DNA of 64,000 bases from Macrostomum lignano. Lineage: Eukaryota. Each line of letters begins with the position of its first letter. Position 1 is the stretch's first letter. Under the pieces are notes generated by a model, which was not told the origin of the DNA, ran no database searches, and saw only the letters and a list, made by a program, of their open reading frames with translations. The position numbers and the translations under genes were made by a program. The stretch is from the NCBI GenBank assembly GCA_002269645.1, contig NIVC01001689.1, forward strand, positions 185,617-249,616, written 5' to 3'. Positions 46,601 to 63,993 of this stretch are shown here, piece by piece.

Positions 46601-49600
46601 CCGGACGGCTCTCGCATCCTTGTTGGCGGCTTCGGACTCTGCGGCATCCCTGAGAATCTCATCGACGGCCTGCACCGGCACGGCGCCAAGGACCTGACGG
46701 TGATCAGCAACAATGCCGGCGTTGACGACTTCGGGCTGGGCCGGCTGCTGCGGTCCAGACAGATCCGCAGGATGGTGTCCTCCTATGTGGGAGAGAATGC
46801 CGAGTTCGCCAGGCAGTACCTCAGCGGCGAGCTGGAGGTAAGGCTGCTTGTGTGCCTGTCTGCTTCTGTGCCTGTCTGCTGTGTCTGTTTGCTTCTGTGT
46901 CTGTCTGCTTCTGTGCCTGTCTGCTTCTGTGTCTGTCTGCTTCTGTGCCTGTCTGCTTCTGTGTCTGTCTGCTTCTGTGTCTGTCTGCTTCTGTGCCTGT
47001 CTGCTTCTGTGTCTGTTTGCTTCTGTGTCTGTTTGCTTCTGTGCCTGTTTGCTTCTGTGTCTGTTTGCTTCTGTGTCTGTCTGCTTCTGTGCCTGTCTGC
47101 TTCTGTGTCTGTCTGCTTCTGTGCCTGTTTGCTTCTGTGTCTGTCTGCTACTGCTTCTGTGCCTGTTTGCTTCTGTGTCTGTCTGCTTCTGCTGTGTCTG
47201 CTTCTGTGCCTGTCTGCTGTGTCTGCTTCTGTGCCTGTCTGCTTCTGTGTCTGTCTGCTTCTGCTGTGTCTGCTTCTGTGCCTGTCTGCTGTGTCTGCTT
47301 CTGTGCCTGTCTGCTTCTGTGTCTGTCTGCTTCTGTGCCTGTCTGCTTCTGTGTCTGTTTGCTTCTGTGTCTGTTTGCTTCTGTGCCTGTCTGCTTCTGT
47401 GTCTGTCTGCTTCTGTGTCTGTCTGCTTCTGTGCCTGTCTGCTTCTGTGTCTGTCTGCTTCTGTGTCTGTTTGCTTCTGTGTCTGTTTGCTTCTGTGCCT
47501 GTCTGCTTCTGTGTCTGTCTGCTTCTGTGCCTGTCTGCTTCTGTGTCTGTCTGCTTCTGTGTCTGTCTGCTTCTGTGCCTGTCTGCTTCTGTGTCTGTTT
47601 GCTTCTGTGTCTGTTTGCTTCTGTGCCTGTTTGCTTCTGTGTCTGTTTGCTTCTGTGTCTGTCTGCTTCTGTGCCTGTCTGCTTCTGTGTCTGTCTGCTT
47701 CTGTGCCTGTCTGCTTCTGTGCCTGTTTGCTTCTGTGTCTGTCTGCTTCTGTGCCTGTCTGCTTCTGTGCCTGTCTGCTGTGTCTGCTTCTGTGCCTGTC
47801 TGCTTCTGTCTGCAAGTCTGCTTATCGTATGCCCAAAAGTGGGATTCGAACATGGCCGAGACTTCACTCCCCCCCCCCCCCGCCGCCAGGTGGAGCTCAC
47901 CCCGCAGGGCACCCTGGCCGAGCGGATCCGGGCGGGAGGCGCCGGCATCCCCGCATTCTACACGCCCACCGGCTACGGCACGCTGATCCACGAGGGCGGC
48001 GCGCCCATCAAGTACGGCGAGTCCGGCAAGTCCGTGTTGATCGCCAGCGACCAGCGCGAGGACCGCCAATTCGATGGCCTGAACTACGTGCTGGAGCGGG
48101 CCATCACAGGCGACTTCGCGTTGGTGAAGGCCTGGCGCGCCGACAAAGCGGGCAACCTGGTGTTCAGGAAGACCGCCAACAACTTCAATGCGCCCATGTG
48201 CACCGCGGCAAAGGTGACTCAACTGTGACCTGACTCACTGGGTATTTGACTTGTGCTAACCCACCTCCTCATGGCTATCTGTGGGTATAGGCGCAACTTT
48301 TAAAATCGACCGCCCGTTTCTACTGGCAACACATGTCACGTGACAGGGCAGTCACGTGACAACTGGTTTGTCCAATAGCGACTTGCGTGTGTGTTGCAAG
48401 TTGAAACGGCCGGGCGAAATCGGAAACTTGCATATCTATGGGTATCCGTCTCTTCTCATGGGTATCCGTCTCTTCTCATGGGTATCCGTCTCTTCTCATG
48501 GGTATTTGTCTCTTCTCATGGGTATCTGTCTCTTCTCATGGGTATTTGTCTCTTCTCATGGGTATTTGTCTCTTCTCATGGGTATCTGTCTCTTTTCTCA
48601 TGGGTATCTGTCTCTTCTCATTGGTATCTGTCTCTTCTCATGGGTATCTGTCTCTTTTCTCATGGGTATCTGTCTCTTCTCATTGGTATCTGTCTCTTCT
48701 CATGGGTATCTGTCTCTTTTCTCATGGGTATCTGTCTCTTCTCATTGGTATCTGTCTCTTCTCATGGGTATCTGTCTATTCTCTCATGGGTATCTGTCTC
48801 TTCTCATGGGTATCTGTCTCTTCTCATGGCTATCTGTCTTTCCTCATGGGTATCTGTCTCTTTCCTCATGGGTATCTCCATCTCAGACATCGGGCACTTA
48901 ACCCATTAACCCCATAGCAGAATTGCATTCAACGCCCCTTCCCTTTCAACGCAGGTTACCATCGCAGAGGTTGAGGAGATCGTTGAGACAGGCGAGATCC
49001 CACCTGAGCAGGTGCACATCCCCGGCATTTACGTCAAACGGCTGCTGCGAGGCGCCGCCTACGAGAAGCGAATTGAGCGGCGAACTCTGCGCAAAGCCTC
49101 GGGGCCCGCCGGGGGCGGTGAGTGTGGGGAGAATCTTTCTGTATGCTTTTTTCGTATACCTTCCGCTTCAGCAATCATGAGCATTGCCATTCAGTAATCC
49201 TAAAATCATCCGTCACCAAATCCCATCATTAAGATCCCCAAATCACACCATTGAGATCCCCAAATCCCACCATTAAGTTTCCCAAATCCCAACCATTGAG
49301 ATTCCCAAATCCCACCATTAAGATCCCCAAATTCCACCATTGAGATTCCCAAATCCCACCATTAAGTTTCCCAAATCCCAACCATTGAGATTCCCAAATC
49401 CCACCATTAAGATCCCCAAAATCCCAAAATCCCACCATTATAAATCCCAAGAGCTTCGCTATAAAAAATCCTTTCAGAGGTCGGCGAGTCGTCCCGCGAG
49501 CGCATCATCCGCCGCCTGGCGCTGGAGTTCAAGGACGGCATGTACGTGAACCTGGGTATCGGGATGCCGATGCTGGCCGCCAGCTTCATCCCCGCTGGCG

Positions 49601-50995: not shown

Positions 50996-51920
50996 ATGTT
51001 CACTCATTCCTTACCCGCTCAACCACCTCAATGTACACTCATTTCCTACCCGCACAAACTCCCAAATGTACACTCATTCCCTACCCGCTTAACGACCCAA
51101 TGTACACTCATTCCCTACCCACTCAACCACCCCAATGTTCACTCATTCCCTACCCACTCAACCACCCCAATGTACACTCATTCCCTACCCACTCAACCAC
51201 CCCAATGTACACTCATTCCCTACCGCACAACCACCCCAATGTTCACTCATTCCCTACCGCACAACCACCCCAATGTTCACTCATTCCCTACCCGCTCAAC
51301 CACCCCAATGTACACTCATTCCCTACCCGCTCAACCACCCAAATGTACACTCATTCCCTACCGCACAACCACCCCAATGTTCACCCATTCCCTACCGCAC
51401 AACCACCCCAATGTTCACTCATTCCCTACCCGCTCAACCACCCAATGTACACTCATTCCCTACCCGCTCAACCACCCAATGTACACTCATTCCCTACCCG
51501 CTCAACCAGCCCAATGTACACTCATTCCCTACCCGCTCAACCACCCAATGTACACTCATTCCCTACCCGCTCAACCACCCAATGTACACTCATTCCCTAC
51601 CCGCTCAACCACCCAATGTACACTCATTCCCTACCCGCTCAACCACCCAATGTACACTCATTCCCTACCCGCTCAACCACCCAATGTACACTCATTCCCT
51701 ACCCACTCAACCACCCCAATGTACACTCATTCCCTACCGCACAACCACCCCAATGTTCACCCATTCCCTACCGCACAACCACCCCAATGTTCACTCATTC
51801 CCTACCCGCTCAACCACCCAATGTACACTCATTCCCTACCCGCTCAACCACCCAATGTACACTCATTCCCTACCCGCTCAACCACCCAATGTACACTCAT
51901 TCCCTACCCGCTCAACCAGC
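50996..51920 (+). repeat. 33-34-bp minisatellite AATGTACACTCATTCCCTACCCGCTCAACCACC(C)
   Basis: About 27 copies downstream of the OXCT1 stop. Confidence 0.96.
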
Positions 51921-52604
51921 CCTAGATACAAAATATCGGGAGAAATTTTTTTGCATGGTGCTAAGTTTAATTCTTGTTGATATTTGAGCATAAATATTTC
52001 TCTTCACGTGGGGTTATGAAATAGCAATTCACAGGGTGAGTCAGTTACATTGAACAACTTTCCTTCTGTAGTGGTTAATTACGGATTCTTAGCAATTAAT
52101 TTGCTACCAATCTGCCTGTTCACTACAGAATATAAACGCTAACACTTCATTGTAAAATGCGATGTATATTGAAAAGGCTGCGCCACATATTTATTATTTG
52201 GCTTATATTAATAAGAGATTAATATATAATTAGCTACATTTCTAATGCGAGTGTTACTGTAAGCCTGCTGTAGATTTTAATGTCTAATCATGCGTTATTT
52301 AATCATCATTGTTAAAATAGACTGAAGATTTTCCAGTTACTAATAATTATTATAATTATGCATTATTATAATCGGATGATCGGTTTTCACTTTCTCATCG
52401 TCCATGCTTTTGCCGCCTGCTCCGCAGCTGCGCAGCTGGCATGGGGGCCGCGTCGCCGGGGTCCAGGTGCCTCAGGGCCAACTCTGCCGCTGCCGCCTTC
52501 GCCAGCCAGCCGAACAGTGCTGGAAGGGCAGGAGGAATGAACTCGTTTGGATCGCATTTTAGCCGTCAGAACCGTCTCCCATGGTAATCTGCGAATCCCT
52601 CTCT

Positions 52605-57874: not shown

Positions 57875-58891
57875 TTAAGGCACAAAGCGCTCAGGAGCGG
57901 ATCGGTTTCTGAGGCTCCTTCTCAGCTGAACGGCTTCTTCAGGCACGGGTGTCTGAATCCCTGCGACTGGCTCGTTTCCGGTTTCTGGCACGCTGTTAGT
58001 CTCATCTTCGTCCTCCATCTCGAATTCCGATGGCCGGGGGGCCAGTGGGGCAAGGTGATTCGTGCTTGCAAGGCGAAGCCCATCGTCAGCGAGGATCCAC
58101 GCCGTGTTTTGACCTGCCGTCATCACGAACTTTGCCGGGTTGCCGACTGAGGAGCTGCTGGGCGCATAGATCACGCTGTCACACTGTTCGAAGTTGGTCA
58201 CCACCGGGACTCTGAGTCGCCGTCCAAAAAGAATTTCGGCTGGGCAGCAGCCCCGCGAAGAGGCTGAGTTTCTGTGGTGCAGGAGGACCTTTTGCAAGAA
58301 GCGGCTAAACTCCACGTGCGTAATTTTTTCAGACCAGGCCCTTAGTGCGGACTTGACGGTCTGAACGGCCCTTTCTGCGGCTCCATTCGCCTGCGGGTAA
58401 TAGGTAGGTGACTCGAGCTTCTTGGCACCATTGGCGCGGAGCCACGATGTGAGCACTTCAGTGGTGAACTCTGGGGCGTTGTCCGAAACCACCAGCTCGG
58501 GGACGCCGAACCGTGTGAATACGGTACGCAGGCACTGAATGACTGAATCAGCTGTGCGATCGCGGCAAGGAAATGCTTCTATCCAGCCGGAAAAGGAATC
58601 CACGATGACCAGGATGTTTCCAGCGCCTTTTACGTATGCCCAGTCCATGTGTACGCGCTGGAACGGATACGTTGATGGAGGCCAGCGATCCCTGTCGTGG
58701 CCGAGTTGAGGCCGAAGCCTGCAGCAGTCTGGACAGCGTCGAACAAACTGGGCAACGTCCTGTTGCATTCCGGGCCACCAGCAGCTGGTAGACATTAGAC
58801 TGTGCGCTGCATGCATGCCCGTGTGCGTGTCGTGAATGGCATCGAACGCGGCCTTGCGCAGTCTTGGTGGAATGAAGACTCTTCTTTGCAT
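57875..58891 (-). pseudogene. Gypsy integrase (H2C2 + DDE core), separated from RT by a deletion
   Basis: IHDTHTG...WWPGM...CPDC, RVHMDWA, VVSDNAPEF and NGAAERAVQ. Confidence 0.95.
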
Positions 58892-58954
58892 GTAGAGTAG
58901 TCCATTTTCTAGCGTTAGTTTGTTTGAGACTTTTCAAAGTTTAGTTTTCAAACG

Positions 58955-60880
58955 TTAGTTTGGTTGATGGTCTGTGCGTATTGTGAATGGTCGGCCATGG
59001 CAGTAGTGCTTCAAGCGTGCGATGGCCCAAACAATAGCCAAGGCCCCCCGCTCGATGTTAGAATAATTGGATTCAGCGGAGGACAGGCTACGTGACACGT
59101 ATATCACGGGATGGCCATCTTGTGTTGCCACGGCGGCGAGGGCTCCTTTGGAAGCATCAGTGGTCAGCGTCAGTTCCTTTGTCAAGCTGTAGGGCTGGAC
59201 CACAGGCGCTGAAGCGATTTCCAGCTTTAGGCTCTCGAACGCTTTGGAACACTCCTCCGACCACACGAACGGAACGCTTGCTTGTCGTAGTCTATTAAGC
59301 GGTGCAGTTTTGCCTGCAAAGTTTGGGATGAGGCGGCCGAAGAAGTTTACCAAGCCAAGAAAGTGAGCGAGCTCTGATTTATTTGCTGGCGGGCACACAT
59401 GGCGAATTTTCTCCACTAGGCGATCATCGGGCTGAATACCAGCCGCGGATATTCGGAAGCCCAAGAACGAAACCGAATCGCAATAGCTGATGCTTTTCGC
59501 TTCGTTGATAGTCACGCGCTTCTCAGATAGACGCGTTCGCACAGCAGCGAGGCGCTTCTCCAGCGTGGGTTTGTCTGGCGCGTGAATGAGAATGTCGTCT
59601 TGGTAGATAAGCAGTCCTTTGATGTCTCCTAGAATGGATTCCATGGTGCGTTGGAAGATGAAGGAGGCGTTCTTCATCCCCATTTGCAGCCGATTGACAC
59701 GATAGAGCCCGCGGGACGTGTTTATTACCGATAGGTCTCTCGCGGCTTCATCAAGCTCGATCTGCCAGTACGCCGAACGTAGATCGACTGTGGCGAAAGT
59801 TTTGGCGTTCTTTAGCTTGGAGAACATGGTCTCGATGTGTGGAATGGGATATGAGTCTGATTTGATCTTCGAATTGACGTGCACGCTGTAGTCCGCGCAC
59901 ATGCGGAGAGTTCCATCCTTCTTCTTTACCCACACTACGGGTGAAGCGTTACTAACCGGACCCTCTGTTGGCTCGATGACACCAAGTTGGTGGAGGCGAT
60001 CCAGTTCTGCGCTGATTTGGCTTTCTAGGGCGAGTGGCACAGCACGAGCGCGGCAAAATTGTGGTTTAGCACCGTCCACCAGTTCCATTCGGGCCTTAAC
60101 GCCTCGGATACAGGGCAGAGGTTCGACGGCAGTTTTTTCTGCTTGAACATCGCTGGCATGGAAGACACCGTCAGACTCGAGGAGGTCGCGGCCGAGCAAC
60201 CCGTACGTCTTTTCCGAAGAGACTACAATCAGTTCCACTGGTTGAAGGCGTCCTCGTAGCTCCACAGTTGCAGTCACTTTACCAAGCGATTTCATGACGT
60301 GCCCGTCGAAGGCCTCCAAGCGCCGATTGGAACGCATTAGTGGTGGCTTACCCAGCAGAGCCCATTGCGCACTGGAGAGCACGGAGACTGATGCTCCCGT
60401 GTCGATCTGCATTTTGAAGGGCTTATCGTTGATGCGCACAGTCTCCGTAGATACTTCAATCGAATTGAGCGCATCGATGAGATGCAGTACGTCTGTTTTT
60501 TGTTGGGCGGAATCTGAATCCTCCTCACCAGTAGTCGTGTAGTGCATGGATCGAGACTTACAAACAGTACTGAAGTGGTTTTTCTTTCCACACTTGGAGC
60601 AGCTTTTTCCGAAAGCGGGGCATCTGCCTTCGGGTGTGACTTGCCACAGTACCGACAGGCGCTGATTGTGCGATGAGAGCTTGCATGCTGCGATGTCTCA
60701 GGCCGACCGGATTGAGCGTAATGAAGGGTGGCTTCGTAGGTGCATGGTGATTTAGATTGGCCGGTTGCCTTGTCCATCTGCCTGGCGACGAAGCCATCGA
60801 CTTGCTCTAGGTTGCGTATGAAGTCCGTGATTTCTGAGACGGACATCAGTTTCAGCTGCATTGCTTCGAGTACCCCTTCT
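58955..60880 (-). pseudogene. Gypsy gag C-terminus - aspartic protease - RT - truncated RNase H
   Basis: CRYCGKSH / CPAFGKSCSKCGKKNHFSTVC (1-nt frameshift near 60627), QIDTGAS, RMCADYS, VDLRSAYWQI, IYQDDILI, TTDAS, NIERGALA, and DHQPN* premature end. Confidence 0.93.
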
Positions 60881-61045
60881 AGTAGTAGGGGAAATGTGGA
60901 CTCTGCCGCAGGAATTTCCGTGGGAAAACCACGGGCCTATGTGTGTAAACATAGCGCCTATGTAAATGCATTGGTGGACTCTGCCGCAGGGAAAGCCATG
61001 GAAATTCCATGGGGCCTTAGTGAGAGAACATAGGCCTATGTTTTT
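60881..61045 (+). repeat. Polinton terminal region (putative left TIR) with direct repeats and hairpins
   Basis: GTGGACTCTGCCGCAGG at 60896-60912 and 60974-60990; hairpins CCGTGG-GAAAA-CCACGG and CCATGG-AAATT-CCATGG; palindrome AACATAGGCCTATGTT at 61027-61042. True TIR length cannot be determined without the right end. Confidence 0.75.
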
Positions 61046-61078: not shown

Positions 61079-61085
61079 TATATAA
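61079..61085 (+). promoter_or_regulatory. TATA box for the first Polinton gene
   Basis: TATATAA about 80 bp upstream of the ATG at 61163. Confidence 0.5.
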
Positions 61086-61162: not shown

Positions 61163-61927
61163 ATGGACATCGGCGAAGGATATAAACTCCAAATACAGGA
61201 GTATGAAGGAGTTATGTTCATTGCTATCAGAAAATTTTACCGACATGGCAGCACTGCGAGTTTGAAACCTGGAGTCCCCGGCTTCAATTTGAACATCCGT
61301 CAGTGGGAGAAGCTCAAGGAGTTGAAGCGATCACTTGTCAAGGCGGCCTTGGACAAACAGCCAAAGGTTGTCAAACTCGGCTTCGATAAGTTCATCGAAG
61401 TGAAAAACGGCATTATCTGGTTAAAGCGATTGCCGGAGGACTGCTGCGACGAGTTTCTTAAGCGGAACACCGTGCCGCTGACACCGCCGCTGTGGCGAAA
61501 GCTGTGGCAGTACGCGGATTGGATCGACGAGCAGCTATCGGCTCCACGTGAGATTTCCGATGCATACGAGCTGGAGTCGGGATCTTCCTCCGACAGCATC
61601 GAAAATGAAGACGATGCTGGCGAAAACGCGGAAGAGACCAAGCCGGTAGTGAAGGCGGAGGACGATGCTGCTGCTGCTGCTGGCGAGGCTGGCATGCCAT
61701 CCAATCTGCAAATCGACACAGCGTTTGCCACTTCAACGCCTCTGCAACTGACCAAGCCAGCAGCTGGAGCGATTCCTCGGCAGGACACTGATCTGCAAGA
61801 GGACCCAGTCTGGTACCAGTTCCGAGCTCAAGCAGCCGCCGCTGAGAACGCCAGGAAACGCAAGCAGCCGCCATTCGCTCTGCGCAGATTGGATGCCATG
61901 AAGCTGCCCAGGCCGTGCTTCGACTGA
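61163..61927 (+). CDS. Polinton-encoded PC4/Sub1-like ssDNA-binding protein, 254 aa, probably two PC4 repeats
   Basis: DIGEGYKLQIQEYEGVMFIAIRKFY...KPGVPGFNLNIRQWEKL matches the PC4 pattern (IG..R.V.V.EFKG...IDIREYY...KPG.KGISL...QW..L). A second degenerate copy is KLGFDKFIEVKNGIIWLKR...VPLTPPLWRKL. Acidic linker and basic RKRK tail follow. Confidence 0.75.
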   Translation: MDIGEGYKLQIQEYEGVMFIAIRKFYRHGSTASLKPGVPGFNLNIRQWEKLKELKRSLVKAALDKQPKVVKLGFDKFIEVKNGIIWLKRLPEDCCDEFLKRNTVPLTPPLWRKLWQYADWIDEQLSAPREISDAYELESGSSSDSIENEDDAGENAEETKPVVKAEDDAAAAAGEAGMPSNLQIDTAFATSTPLQLTKPAAGAIPRQDTDLQEDPVWYQFRAQAAAAENARKRKQPPFALRRLDAMKLPRPCFD

Positions 61928-62094
61928 TTGCAGACCCTCTGACATTGAGACAAACTCTGTGCTACGAGCTATTTATCCAGACCTGCTTTCCATCTCTTTG
62001 TTTGAAAAAATATATATGCTTGCTTTCACATGCGCTATGCATTTTCAATGTCTTAAGAAAACCTAAAAATAAAAATGTTTCTTTGTTTCCGAAA

Positions 62095-63162
62095 ATGGAA
62101 AAAATTTATTTCAACCCAAATCAGCCTGCGAGCTATTGCAGTTCTTCAAAACTGCAACCTGAACTGCGAAAAAGAGGCGAGCATATTGGAGTCAAGAGCA
62201 TTGAGCAGTGGCTAAGTCAGCAGCCAGTACACACTCTGCATAAGCCAGCTAGAGTACGATTTCCAAGGGCGCCAATAATAGTGAGAGCCATTGATGATCA
62301 GTGGGAGATGGATCTGGTGGAAATGATTCCATTTGCAAAGTATAATCGCGGGCATAAATACATTCTCACCTGCATTGATGTTTTGTCTAAATTTGCAATG
62401 GCCAGAGCACTGAAGTCTAAGAGCGCGGCAGAAGTGAAATCTGCGTTTGAGAGCATGCTGAAGAGCTCAAAGCGGCAGCCGCGCACTGTCCGCACAGATC
62501 AGGGAAAGGAGTTTGTCAACGCAATTTTTCGCCAGTTCTGCATAGACCGGGGGATTCTGGCGTTTCCAACTAGCAGTGTGCACAAAGCAGCCATAATTGA
62601 AAGATGGAATCGAACTTTAAAAAGCAAGATGTGGCGTTACTTTACTCACAACAGCACTCTACAATGGCTTGATGTGCTGCCTAAACTGGTCAAGTCCTAT
62701 AACAATACTTTCCACAGAAGCATCAAGACTACACCAATGAATGTCAGCAAAGCAAACGAGACTGAAGTGTGGATGAACCTTTATGATGGGAAAGCGATTG
62801 AGACAGTTGAGAAACTGAGAAAACCGAAGTTCTGTGAAAACCAATCAGTGCGGATTTCCAATGCACCCAGACTCTTCAGGAAGGGATACAAGGCGAACTG
62901 GAGCGAAGAGGTGTACACCATAGTGTCTAGGGCACCAAAGCATTATCCCTACATGTACAGGATTCGAGACATGAAGGGGGAAGACATAAGAGGCCTCTTC
63001 CACGAGCATGAGCTGCAAGCTGTTCCGGACTCGCAGCGGCTGTATGTAATCGAGAAGGTTCTGAAGACTGAGAAGCGGAAGGGTAAGATCCGATATCTCG
63101 TCAAGTGGGCCGGCTACAAGTCCACTGACTGGGTGGATGAGAAGGACTTAAGAAAAGTGTAA
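62095..63162 (+). CDS. Polinton retroviral-type (rve) DDE integrase with C-terminal chromodomain, 355 aa
   Basis: N-terminal YFNP..P.SY, QWEMDL (D1), RTDQGKEF (D2), IIERWNRTLK (E), YNNTFHRSIKTTP, FRKGYKANWSEEVY and chromodomain YVIEKVL...YLVKWAGY. ATG at 62095; the track start at 61915 is a non-ATG extension. Confidence 0.95.
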   Translation: MEKIYFNPNQPASYCSSSKLQPELRKRGEHIGVKSIEQWLSQQPVHTLHKPARVRFPRAPIIVRAIDDQWEMDLVEMIPFAKYNRGHKYILTCIDVLSKFAMARALKSKSAAEVKSAFESMLKSSKRQPRTVRTDQGKEFVNAIFRQFCIDRGILAFPTSSVHKAAIIERWNRTLKSKMWRYFTHNSTLQWLDVLPKLVKSYNNTFHRSIKTTPMNVSKANETEVWMNLYDGKAIETVEKLRKPKFCENQSVRISNAPRLFRKGYKANWSEEVYTIVSRAPKHYPYMYRIRDMKGEDIRGLFHEHELQAVPDSQRLYVIEKVLKTEKRKGKIRYLVKWAGYKSTDWVDEKDLRKV

Positions 63163-63192: not shown

Positions 63193-63993
63193 ATGAGAAG
63201 CATCATCATTTGTAGCGAAAATGCTGAAGGTACTCCTAGTGACTTTCATTTTCACCTGCCTTCATCTATTTACTTGGATCGAAATGTGGACTATGAGGCA
63301 GGTCTGGCTGAAATCCATCTGCCTGCTGCATGGTTCAATGTTGACGAGCCTTACTGCTTCACTGTCTCAGATGGAAGAGAGCATGAGGCCCTGGTTCTTC
63401 AACCCGGACGCTTTGCTAGAGTGGAGGAACTGGTGGAACGCCTGAATGAGCTGCTGGCCAACTCTGAGTCACTGTTCTTCGATGCAATGAGCGAAAGGGA
63501 GTCTGAAATGGAAGCTGATGAGTCCGGTTTAATGGGGCGGAGCAGCGCTAGAGATATTGGCATAAAGTTTGAAATCCAAGAGTTGAGAACAGTAGTGCTC
63601 AACAACACGGCTCGAGCAGAATTGTTCCTTCCATCAAGTAAAATTCTGCAGTGGCTGGGATTCGGAAACCAGCCTGTGAAGATCCCACCCGGACGGCAAG
63701 TGTCACTCTGCTGCATCGGTTGTCCGCCCACCAACCTGATCAACTTGCACTGCAGCATTGTGGAGCGAACAAACTGTAACTGGAACTCCGTGCTGCGAAC
63801 TGTGAGCATGTCATCCGATGTCGAATGGGGCAGCTACATGAGCAAAGTGTTTAAGAAAGCAATTTTCTTCCCGATTCAGAAAGCTAATTTTCTATATGGC
63901 ATTAGATTTCAACTGCGTGACATCTTTGGCTACTCACTGACTGCTCGGAGCAGCAGCCCTGTTCTGCTCACAGTTCATATTCGGAAAGGCTAA
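63193..63993 (+). CDS. Polinton minor capsid protein (penton-like single jelly-roll), 266 aa
   Basis: N-terminal SDFHFHLPSSIYL...YEAGLAEIHLPAAWFN and C-terminal FQLRDIFG...VLLTVHIRK match the typical Polinton mCP pattern; located directly after the integrase. Confidence 0.8.
   Translation: MRSIIICSENAEGTPSDFHFHLPSSIYLDRNVDYEAGLAEIHLPAAWFNVDEPYCFTVSDGREHEALVLQPGRFARVEELVERLNELLANSESLFFDAMSERESEMEADESGLMGRSSARDIGIKFEIQELRTVVLNNTARAELFLPSSKILQWLGFGNQPVKIPPGRQVSLCCIGCPPTNLINLHCSIVERTNCNWNSVLRTVSMSSDVEWGSYMSKVFKKAIFFPIQKANFLYGIRFQLRDIFGYSLTARSSSPVLLTVHIRKG

Follow-up and report, generated by a model that had tools for sequence, protein, structure and literature searches.

What does a Polinton do with a protein of two PC4-like repeats whose gene stands directly beside the terminus of the element? 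The Polinton papers that we searched give no account of the way in which the long single strands from protein-primed replication are dealt with in animal Polintons. The PC4-like protein of the present locus is a small, well-folding candidate for this task. The reading that we rank first, and to which we give an about even chance, is that by analogy it would act early and assist strand-displacement replication by binding ssDNA. The gene is located in a stretch of 64,000 nucleotides from Macrostomum lignano (referred to as the window), together with the following features:

60881..61014, + strand: left terminal inverted repeat (TIR) of the Polinton, beginning with AGTAGTAG; about 134 bp, holding an internal 78-bp spaced repeat
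61079..61085, + strand: TATA box (TATATAA), 84 nt upstream of the ATG, presumed promoter element
61163..61927, + strand: PC4-like gene with tandem repeats, 254 aa, recognised by ORF, Pfam, model and selection
62068..62073, + strand: AATAAA, by its sequence the likely poly(A) signal of the PC4-like gene
62095..63162, + strand: Polinton integrase with chromodomain, the next gene (Pfam rve E 2.5e-16, Chromo E 1e-4)
63193..63993, + strand: ORF of 266 aa without Pfam match, by gene order a putative minor capsid gene

The Polinton and its terminal gene

The PC4-like ORF starts 282 bp inside the Polinton end at 60881 and is the first gene from the terminus, as an earlier note on this DNA had stated. 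The left TIR (60881-61014) recurs in inverted orientation, with a match of 97-98%, at the far end of three sister copies and of a mini-element. The window ends where the contig ends and the right end of this Polinton copy lies past that point, therefore sister copies were used for the rest of the element. The Polinton is inserted into a retrotransposon, of which protease, reverse transcriptase and RNase H are found at 58955-60547. The interrupted retrotransposon spans positions 57875-60880 of the window; an insertion-free retrotransposon is present in read contigs and diverges after 60873, and the junction between retrotransposon and Polinton recurs at one further locus (L039 on contig C1321), probably the second haplotype. 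Long tandem-repeat open frames at 46772-47986, 48438-48917 and 50996-51987 lie in an intron-rich host gene region and are likely not proteins.

The sister copies of this family (family A) are 12.1-16.5 kb long and have the hallmarks of Polintons, namely TIRs (about 134 bp) with AGT/AG ends and 6-bp target duplications, which are perfect at five of seven ends and carry one mismatch at the other two. An rve integrase is encoded in the window; DNA_pol_B_2 and Peptidase_C5 score above cut-off in sister copies. The gene order from the terminus is PC4-like gene, integrase, 266-aa ORF, 137-aa ORF, 427-aa ORF, protease, ATPase, 241-aa ORF, exonuclease-like ORF and TBP, followed on the opposite strand by protein-primed PolB and a 304-aa ORF. 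The capsid and exonuclease names are putative and follow from gene order, as does that of the 266-aa ORF as minor capsid gene. The capsid candidates have the expected size and order and no Pfam family, and the ATPase shows weak P-loop matches only. PolB is deleted or frameshifted in the family-A copies read. Some family-A relatives (L024 and L026, from the set L023, L024 and L026) terminate in AGAGAGAG, not in AGTAGTAG.

A genome search yielded 284 candidates for the PC4-like gene, of which 150 were scored; all of these match, with identities from 100% (16 rows including the window copy) down to 34%. A second family (family B; 14.3 kb in the copy measured) has an integrase that is about 55%, a PolB that is about 45% and a PC4-like protein that is about 33% identical (across the two repeats) to those of family A. 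At 10 of the 11 family-B places fetched the PC4-like gene comes first, at a distance of about 1 kb from the terminus. The remaining gene block is inverted relative to family A, yet the terminal PC4-like position is kept; the first position of this gene is conserved across a rearrangement in two Polinton families.

In addition, the elements encode a TBP, which was absent from the earlier note. The family-A TBP gene is recognised by Pfam (E 3.3e-21) and by matches to TBP in the PDB, and a same-strand TBP match follows within 17 kb downstream for 70 of 102 near-full family-A PC4 matches, the misses including contig ends and deleted copies. At all 11 family-B places fetched, TBP lies beside the PC4-like gene. 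Sequences of this TBP, such as L043:1025-1585 (-) and L069:2417-3013 (-), are divergent and overlap the end of the exonuclease-like ORF in both families; the usual Phe pair is missing from the first half and YEPExF is kept in the second. The genome holds at least 152 matches to the element TBP.

Of the earlier claim that the gene has its own TATA promoter inside the terminal region, the TATA box was found, but its position was not as assumed: it lies about 65 bp interior to the TIR. The motif TATA(T/A)A is present within 130 nt upstream of the start in seven of eight divergent copies, the flanks of which are otherwise unlike. Among 12 family-A ORF starts checked it occurs within 160 nt only at the PC4-like gene, in a comparison that used first ATGs; a further TATA-like run stands at 62011 in the window copy. 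Four contig sets marked 'RNA?' span the PC4-like gene, but the flanks as well.

TATA box and TBP gene bear on an alternative function, which we consider possible but doubtful. The protein could mainly be a transcription cofactor, i.e. an immediate-early PC4-like factor that would act at the promoter bubble, contact the element's own TBP or host polymerase II factors via an acidic-aromatic tail and activate the later genes. Such a role would be in agreement with TBP genes in both families and with a host-type TATA box at the PC4-like gene and at none of the 11 other starts. Together with the element TBP, the PC4-like gene may then form a small self-encoded transcription kit instead. Any two genes that belong to a single element would, however, co-occur as this gene and TBP do, and both families come from one genome.

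Two mini-elements of 1,334 bp (L045:7853-9186) and 2,504 bp (L071:690-3193) have the PC4-like gene between two termini and no other known gene; the deletion in the former has its breakpoint at 62073 of the window, where the AATAAA signal ends. A location of the PC4-like gene inside long terminal repeats was considered and rejected: the normal repeat is about 134 bp, and the inverted pairs of the gene are defective copies, two of them palindromic (contigs C3189 and C2301) and one with the gene at both ends (C664). The palindromic or end-duplicated defective copies read are L051/L052 (C3189), L055/L056 (C2301), L049/L050 (C664) and L061/L062 (C862). Template switching during strand-displacement replication would be expected to give copies of this kind. 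A block of about 8 kb (L026:3006-7001 and L053:1-4069) sits between outward-facing Polinton-type ends and is bounded by short inverted repeats. It contains an A32-like ATPase, a capsid-like ORF of 391 aa and a distant integrase, and has no match to pPolB or PC4. A few kb from a PC4-bearing terminus (L033:5102-6387, - strand), Helitron-like ORFs were noted, which by eye resemble an ssDNA binder with an OB fold and a helicase of the Pif1 type.

Two PC4 units in one chain

The protein can be divided into four parts:

61163..61357, + strand: repeat 1 (residues 1-65), PC4 unit with equivalents of R86, W89 and mostly F77 and with the PGxPG motif of the family
61364..61540, + strand: repeat 2 (residues 68-126), degenerate PC4 unit in which the hairpin is short, W89 has no counterpart and K76, R89 and R101 are conserved
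61541..61762, + strand: acidic, Ser-rich linker (residues 127-200), predicted disordered, weakly constrained
61763..61912, + strand: conserved tail (residues 201-250) with acidic-aromatic motif, predicted helix 216-231, RKRK and LRRx[DNE][AT]

Residues 1-60 had been read as a PC4 motif and residues of about 68-120 as a degenerate second repeat, and both assignments held. Residues 3-53 match the Pfam family PC4 (PF02229) above the curated cut-off of 25 bits, with 26.8 bits for the whole protein and 31.2 bits for residues 1-61; this match covers repeat 1 only, which also aligns to human PC4 chains (E 4e-5). For residues 62-131 alone no Pfam family was found, repeat 2 gave no BLAST match to repeat 1, and the comparison of the two repeat profiles by HHalign scored 13.8, within the range of shuffles (best shuffle 15.5). 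Another profile was built from 292 canonical PC4-type repeats among the matches of a profile search of 1.84 billion representatives. It aligned to repeat 2 over 58 columns (HHalign probability 95%, E 3.7e-8) with a score of 37.2, compared with 16.9 for the best of 100 column shuffles. The homology of repeat 2 to PC4 rests on this canonical profile and on the predicted model. PC4 is the Pfam assignment of 25 of 27 family rows, PUR or Whirly of none (E <= 0.01), and the window protein itself has neither PUR nor Whirly at E <= 1. In the ESM Atlas, PC4 clusters at 0.85-0.88 were obtained, which is a lead only.

Non-synonymous divergence (pN) amounts to 0.19 in repeat 1 and 0.21 in repeat 2 (pS 0.75-0.83 in both), to 0.26 in the tail and to 0.50 in the linker, for 21 pairs of seven divergent copies in which synonymous sites are saturated. 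These values indicate purifying selection on both repeats and a working gene family.

An AlphaFold2 model based on a 14-copy alignment shows residues 1-126 as one two-unit domain (pLDDT 87.4, pTM 0.80), in which each unit has the succession strand-strand-strand-strand-helix (DSSP). In the model, repeat 1 adopts the PC4 fold of a curved sheet with a helix (residues 1-65 superpose on human PC4 with an rmsd of 1.5 A for 64 residues), and the second unit is ordered and related. In a comparison with 48,161 solved chains, repeats I-II of Pur-alpha were the best match and the only one at Z >= 8 (Z 10.9); a second comparison gave human PURA I-II with Z 11.9 and an rmsd of 3.0 A for 119 residues. The next matches were MRP1/2 and Whirly (Z 6.8-7.5). 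The whole-domain superposition would imply a swap of the helices between the two sheets. The predicted model has two four-strand-plus-helix units and a linker in one chain, as in type I PC4-like domains, and not the homodimer of a single unit that defines type II. Both the model and the match of its entire domain to Pur-alpha I-II support the proposal that the fused repeats form a single-chain pseudo-dimer; we regard the two-unit single-chain structure as well supported and hold it with high confidence.

The same folds could point to another target. Repeat 2 may be only a folding partner, or the protein may form swapped intermolecular dimers, with RNA as the ligand as in Pur-alpha or MRP1/2: RNA binders are among the proteins whose folds come closest over the whole domain (Pur-alpha, MRP1/2, Whirly), and the AlphaFold2 model is that of a monomer only. 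We consider this very unlikely, as both repeats are tied by sequence to PC4/Sub1 and not to PUR, and basic residues of surface type are conserved in repeat 2.

An asymmetric set of putative DNA contacts

PC4 contacts DNA through R70, R86, R100, K101, F77 and W89 (PMC4350104, available text). The register of these positions was taken from the PDB alignment and the profile comparison. In repeat 1 of the window protein Y14 corresponds to F77, R23 to R86 and Y26 to W89. Among 26 family rows, arginine at R86 and Tyr or Phe at W89 are invariant (26/26 each), and Tyr or Phe is found at F77 in 15; family B lacks the F77 aromatic. The backbone contacts R70, R100 and K101 are lost from repeat 1, with Y7, V38 and P39 in the window protein and, across the family, aromatic or aliphatic residues at R70, mostly hydrophobic ones at R100 and proline at K101 in 26/26; the KPGRKG motif of PC4 has become xPGxPG. 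Repeat 2 has neither a W89 equivalent nor the F77 hairpin; it has Lys or Arg at R70 in all 26 rows and at R100 in 25, and R89 in all 26. Since the contact residues are split unequally between the repeats, the domain is asymmetric, probably with one good nucleic-acid face as judged from these residues. Binding may be weaker than that of PC4, because repeat 1 is without R70, R100 and K101 and repeat 2 without W89 and the F77 hairpin.

Linker and tail

The acidic linker and the RKRK tail of the earlier description were both recovered. Residues 127-200 contain 17 Asp/Glu versus 4 Lys/Arg, pLDDT is below 50 at residues 133-193, and the full-length model shows this segment as disordered, followed by a helix at 216-231. 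RKRK at residues 231-234 is likely a nuclear signal. The conserved motifs within residues 201-250 go beyond that description. An acidic, Trp-containing tail is kept in both families, which would also suit a transcription cofactor. The family-A motif reads RKRK-x-P-x-x-LRRQ[DN]A (window 61853-61903), with LRRQET in 2 of 14 rows; the family-B tail differs, being Trp-rich and acidic, and is also found in the protein P0007.

The LRRQET form, which resembles a CAMK/CHK-type site and pseudo-substrate, raises the idea that the protein shields the element from the host. It would hide terminal or integration ssDNA from RPA/ATR-type sensing, and the tail would serve as a decoy for host kinases. The early terminal position of the gene, the Thr form in these two rows and the mini-elements that moved as units with only the PC4-like gene would be in line with this. 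On the other hand, the LRRQ[DN]A motif is absent from family B, and mini-elements retain whatever adjoins the ends, so that we regard such shielding as unlikely.

Relatives outside this genome

Of the 163 matches from the profile search of 1.84 billion representatives, 18 align along both repeats and share the family pattern. In a quick tree the first repeats cluster together (support 93) and so do the second repeats (support 99); this grouping fits one old duplication, although the tree, with 69 columns and with the canonical two-repeat protein P0076 omitted, is unable to name the donor. A word-based protein search found only three close relatives, and a cluster look-up of 20 matches led to short contigs. 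No relative was found in viral or metagenome contigs with patterns from a narrow alignment. Many other matches carry two or four canonical PC4 repeats (P0010-P0012, P0039, P0076), one of these proteins also has DEK_C, and a green alga is the source of one; by their sequences they appear to be repeated independent PC4 fusions.

A proposed role in replication

We assume the following course of events for the reading ranked first, that of a replication helper. Transcription by host RNA polymerase II would begin with the PC4-like gene, driven by its TATA box, and the protein would enter the nucleus by means of RKRK. There, the face with R23, Y26 and Y14 (R86, W89 and F77 of PC4) would bind ssDNA, possibly aided by K76 and R101 of repeat 2, and the protein would cover or melt the strand that the protein-primed polymerase displaces, much as DBP does in adenovirus. 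The tethered acidic-aromatic tail would bind a partner. As a consequence of the fusion, dimerisation would not be needed and mixing with the single-unit PC4 of the host would be avoided.

Several observations argue for this role. The element has a protein-primed PolB, and a scan of 11 other family-A ORFs gave no match to an SSB family; repeat 1 superposes on PC4, both repeats are constrained and contact residues are kept; the protein has no N-terminal regulatory region like that of host PC4; and the TATA box is confined to the PC4-like gene among the 12 family-A starts. The PC4-like family moreover binds and unwinds DNA, and its phage T5 member has been implicated in replication (PMC7549692, available text).

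Other points weigh against a replication helper. Six of the 11 ORFs scanned are without any Pfam family, so another SSB in the element is possible; contacts are lost in both repeats, family B is without the F77 aromatic, and TBP in both families fits a role in transcription, too. The review cited above ties asymmetry to the binding of one strand only and symmetry to unwinding. In the accessible text of Barreat and Katzourakis (2021), PC4 is not among the core genes of vertebrate Mavericks, which nevertheless replicate.

For a transcription cofactor, the precedent is that PC4 and Sub1 are cofactors of polymerase II (PMC9600219, available text). The unlike faces, however, fit poorly with the symmetric two-strand bubble binding of PC4, and the N-terminal region of host PC4 is missing from the Polinton protein. 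In PC4 this region is needed for co-activation. We keep the replication helper as the first choice, beside which the protein may have an additional side role in transcription.

Comparison with known systems

Proteins that bind ssDNA for protein-primed strand-displacement replication are adenovirus DBP, phi29 gp5 and PRD1 P12/P19; their folds are unrelated, and the likeness to the Polinton protein is one of proposed function only.

Among viral proteins, the top fold match of the whole domain is a protein named MOSUB (A0A5H3CIS2) of a Branchiostoma lancelet adintovirus (E 2.9e-6, TM 0.77 by query), which is alike in fold with 16% identity; a protein of Drosophila-associated adintovirus 2 is a weak fold match (E 0.08, TM 0.62). 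In the text layer of Supplementary Fig. S2 of Starrett et al. 2021 (PMC8502044) a MOSUB label adjoins an ITR label, on one of the virus maps; in the figures of the same paper SSDBP labels stand on other maps and TBP in a legend. Its main text does not mention MOSUB or Sub1, and hence contains nothing on a two-unit build or a function. The Polinton core set of Barreat and Katzourakis (2021) consists of int, ppolb, atp, pro, Mcp, mcp, pz and pw; PC4 is not in it and has no occurrence in the main text as available. Word searches found no PC4 in the main texts of PMC8097293, PMC10748475, PMC11161782 and a 2026 PLV preprint, and a search of the Polinton/Maverick literature gave no account of a PC4, coactivator, TBP or ssDNA-binding gene; one match for 'PC4' turned out to be a table code, not the protein. 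The earlier note had known of no such architecture as a core Polinton gene. This stands insofar as the PC4-like gene is an accessory Polinton gene outside the core set; it does not insofar as a similar gene was already labelled MOSUB in adintoviruses and two-unit fusions are a described class. What we did not find described is the lopsided two-unit build, the fixed terminal position and the role of the gene.

Proteins with several PC4 domains are also reported as host genes. Of five AiPC4 genes of the bay scallop, three have two PC4 domains and two of these three are single-exon genes; the available text of this paper (PMC9223095) does not mention transposons. The canonical multi-PC4 proteins inspected in the search library keep the K/R-G motif, unlike the Polinton repeats. 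Intronless multi-PC4 'host' genes may, as a warning, belong to mobile elements. It is a speculative extension, and one that we hold with considerable doubt, that many Polintons of invertebrates encode an ssDNA-binding protein of their own from one old PC4 duplication, in which the halves would split the job (bases by repeat 1, backbone by repeat 2) within a single composite groove. This protein would be the counterpart of adenovirus DBP that has been missing for Polintons, and its gene would be the first to be expressed from the terminus. Some of the genes in the 'PC4 gene expansion' reported for bivalves would then be Polinton genes.

With human PC4 and yeast and fungal Sub1, which are type II homodimers, and with their phage T5 homologue, repeat 1 shares the R86 and W89 positions. 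Whereas PC4/Sub1 is a homodimer of a single unit, the Polinton protein has two unlike units in one chain; the chain begins at the PC4 core, without the N-terminal regulatory region of host PC4, and the acidic and basic segments sit after the core, unlike in PC4. The host's own PC4 is an ordinary single-unit protein found at three places. Type I PC4-like domains, the fused two-unit class of Pur-alpha repeats I-II, Whirly and MRP1/2 (PMC7549692, available text), have the same single-chain two-unit topology as the Polinton protein (PURA Z 10.9-11.9), at 8-10% identity. As the Polinton family derives from PC4/Sub1 itself, its fusion is likely independent of Pur-alpha, Whirly and MRP, as far as the sequences and the quick tree tell. 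It may thus represent an independent case in which a type II PC4 homodimer was turned into a type I single chain with unlike halves.
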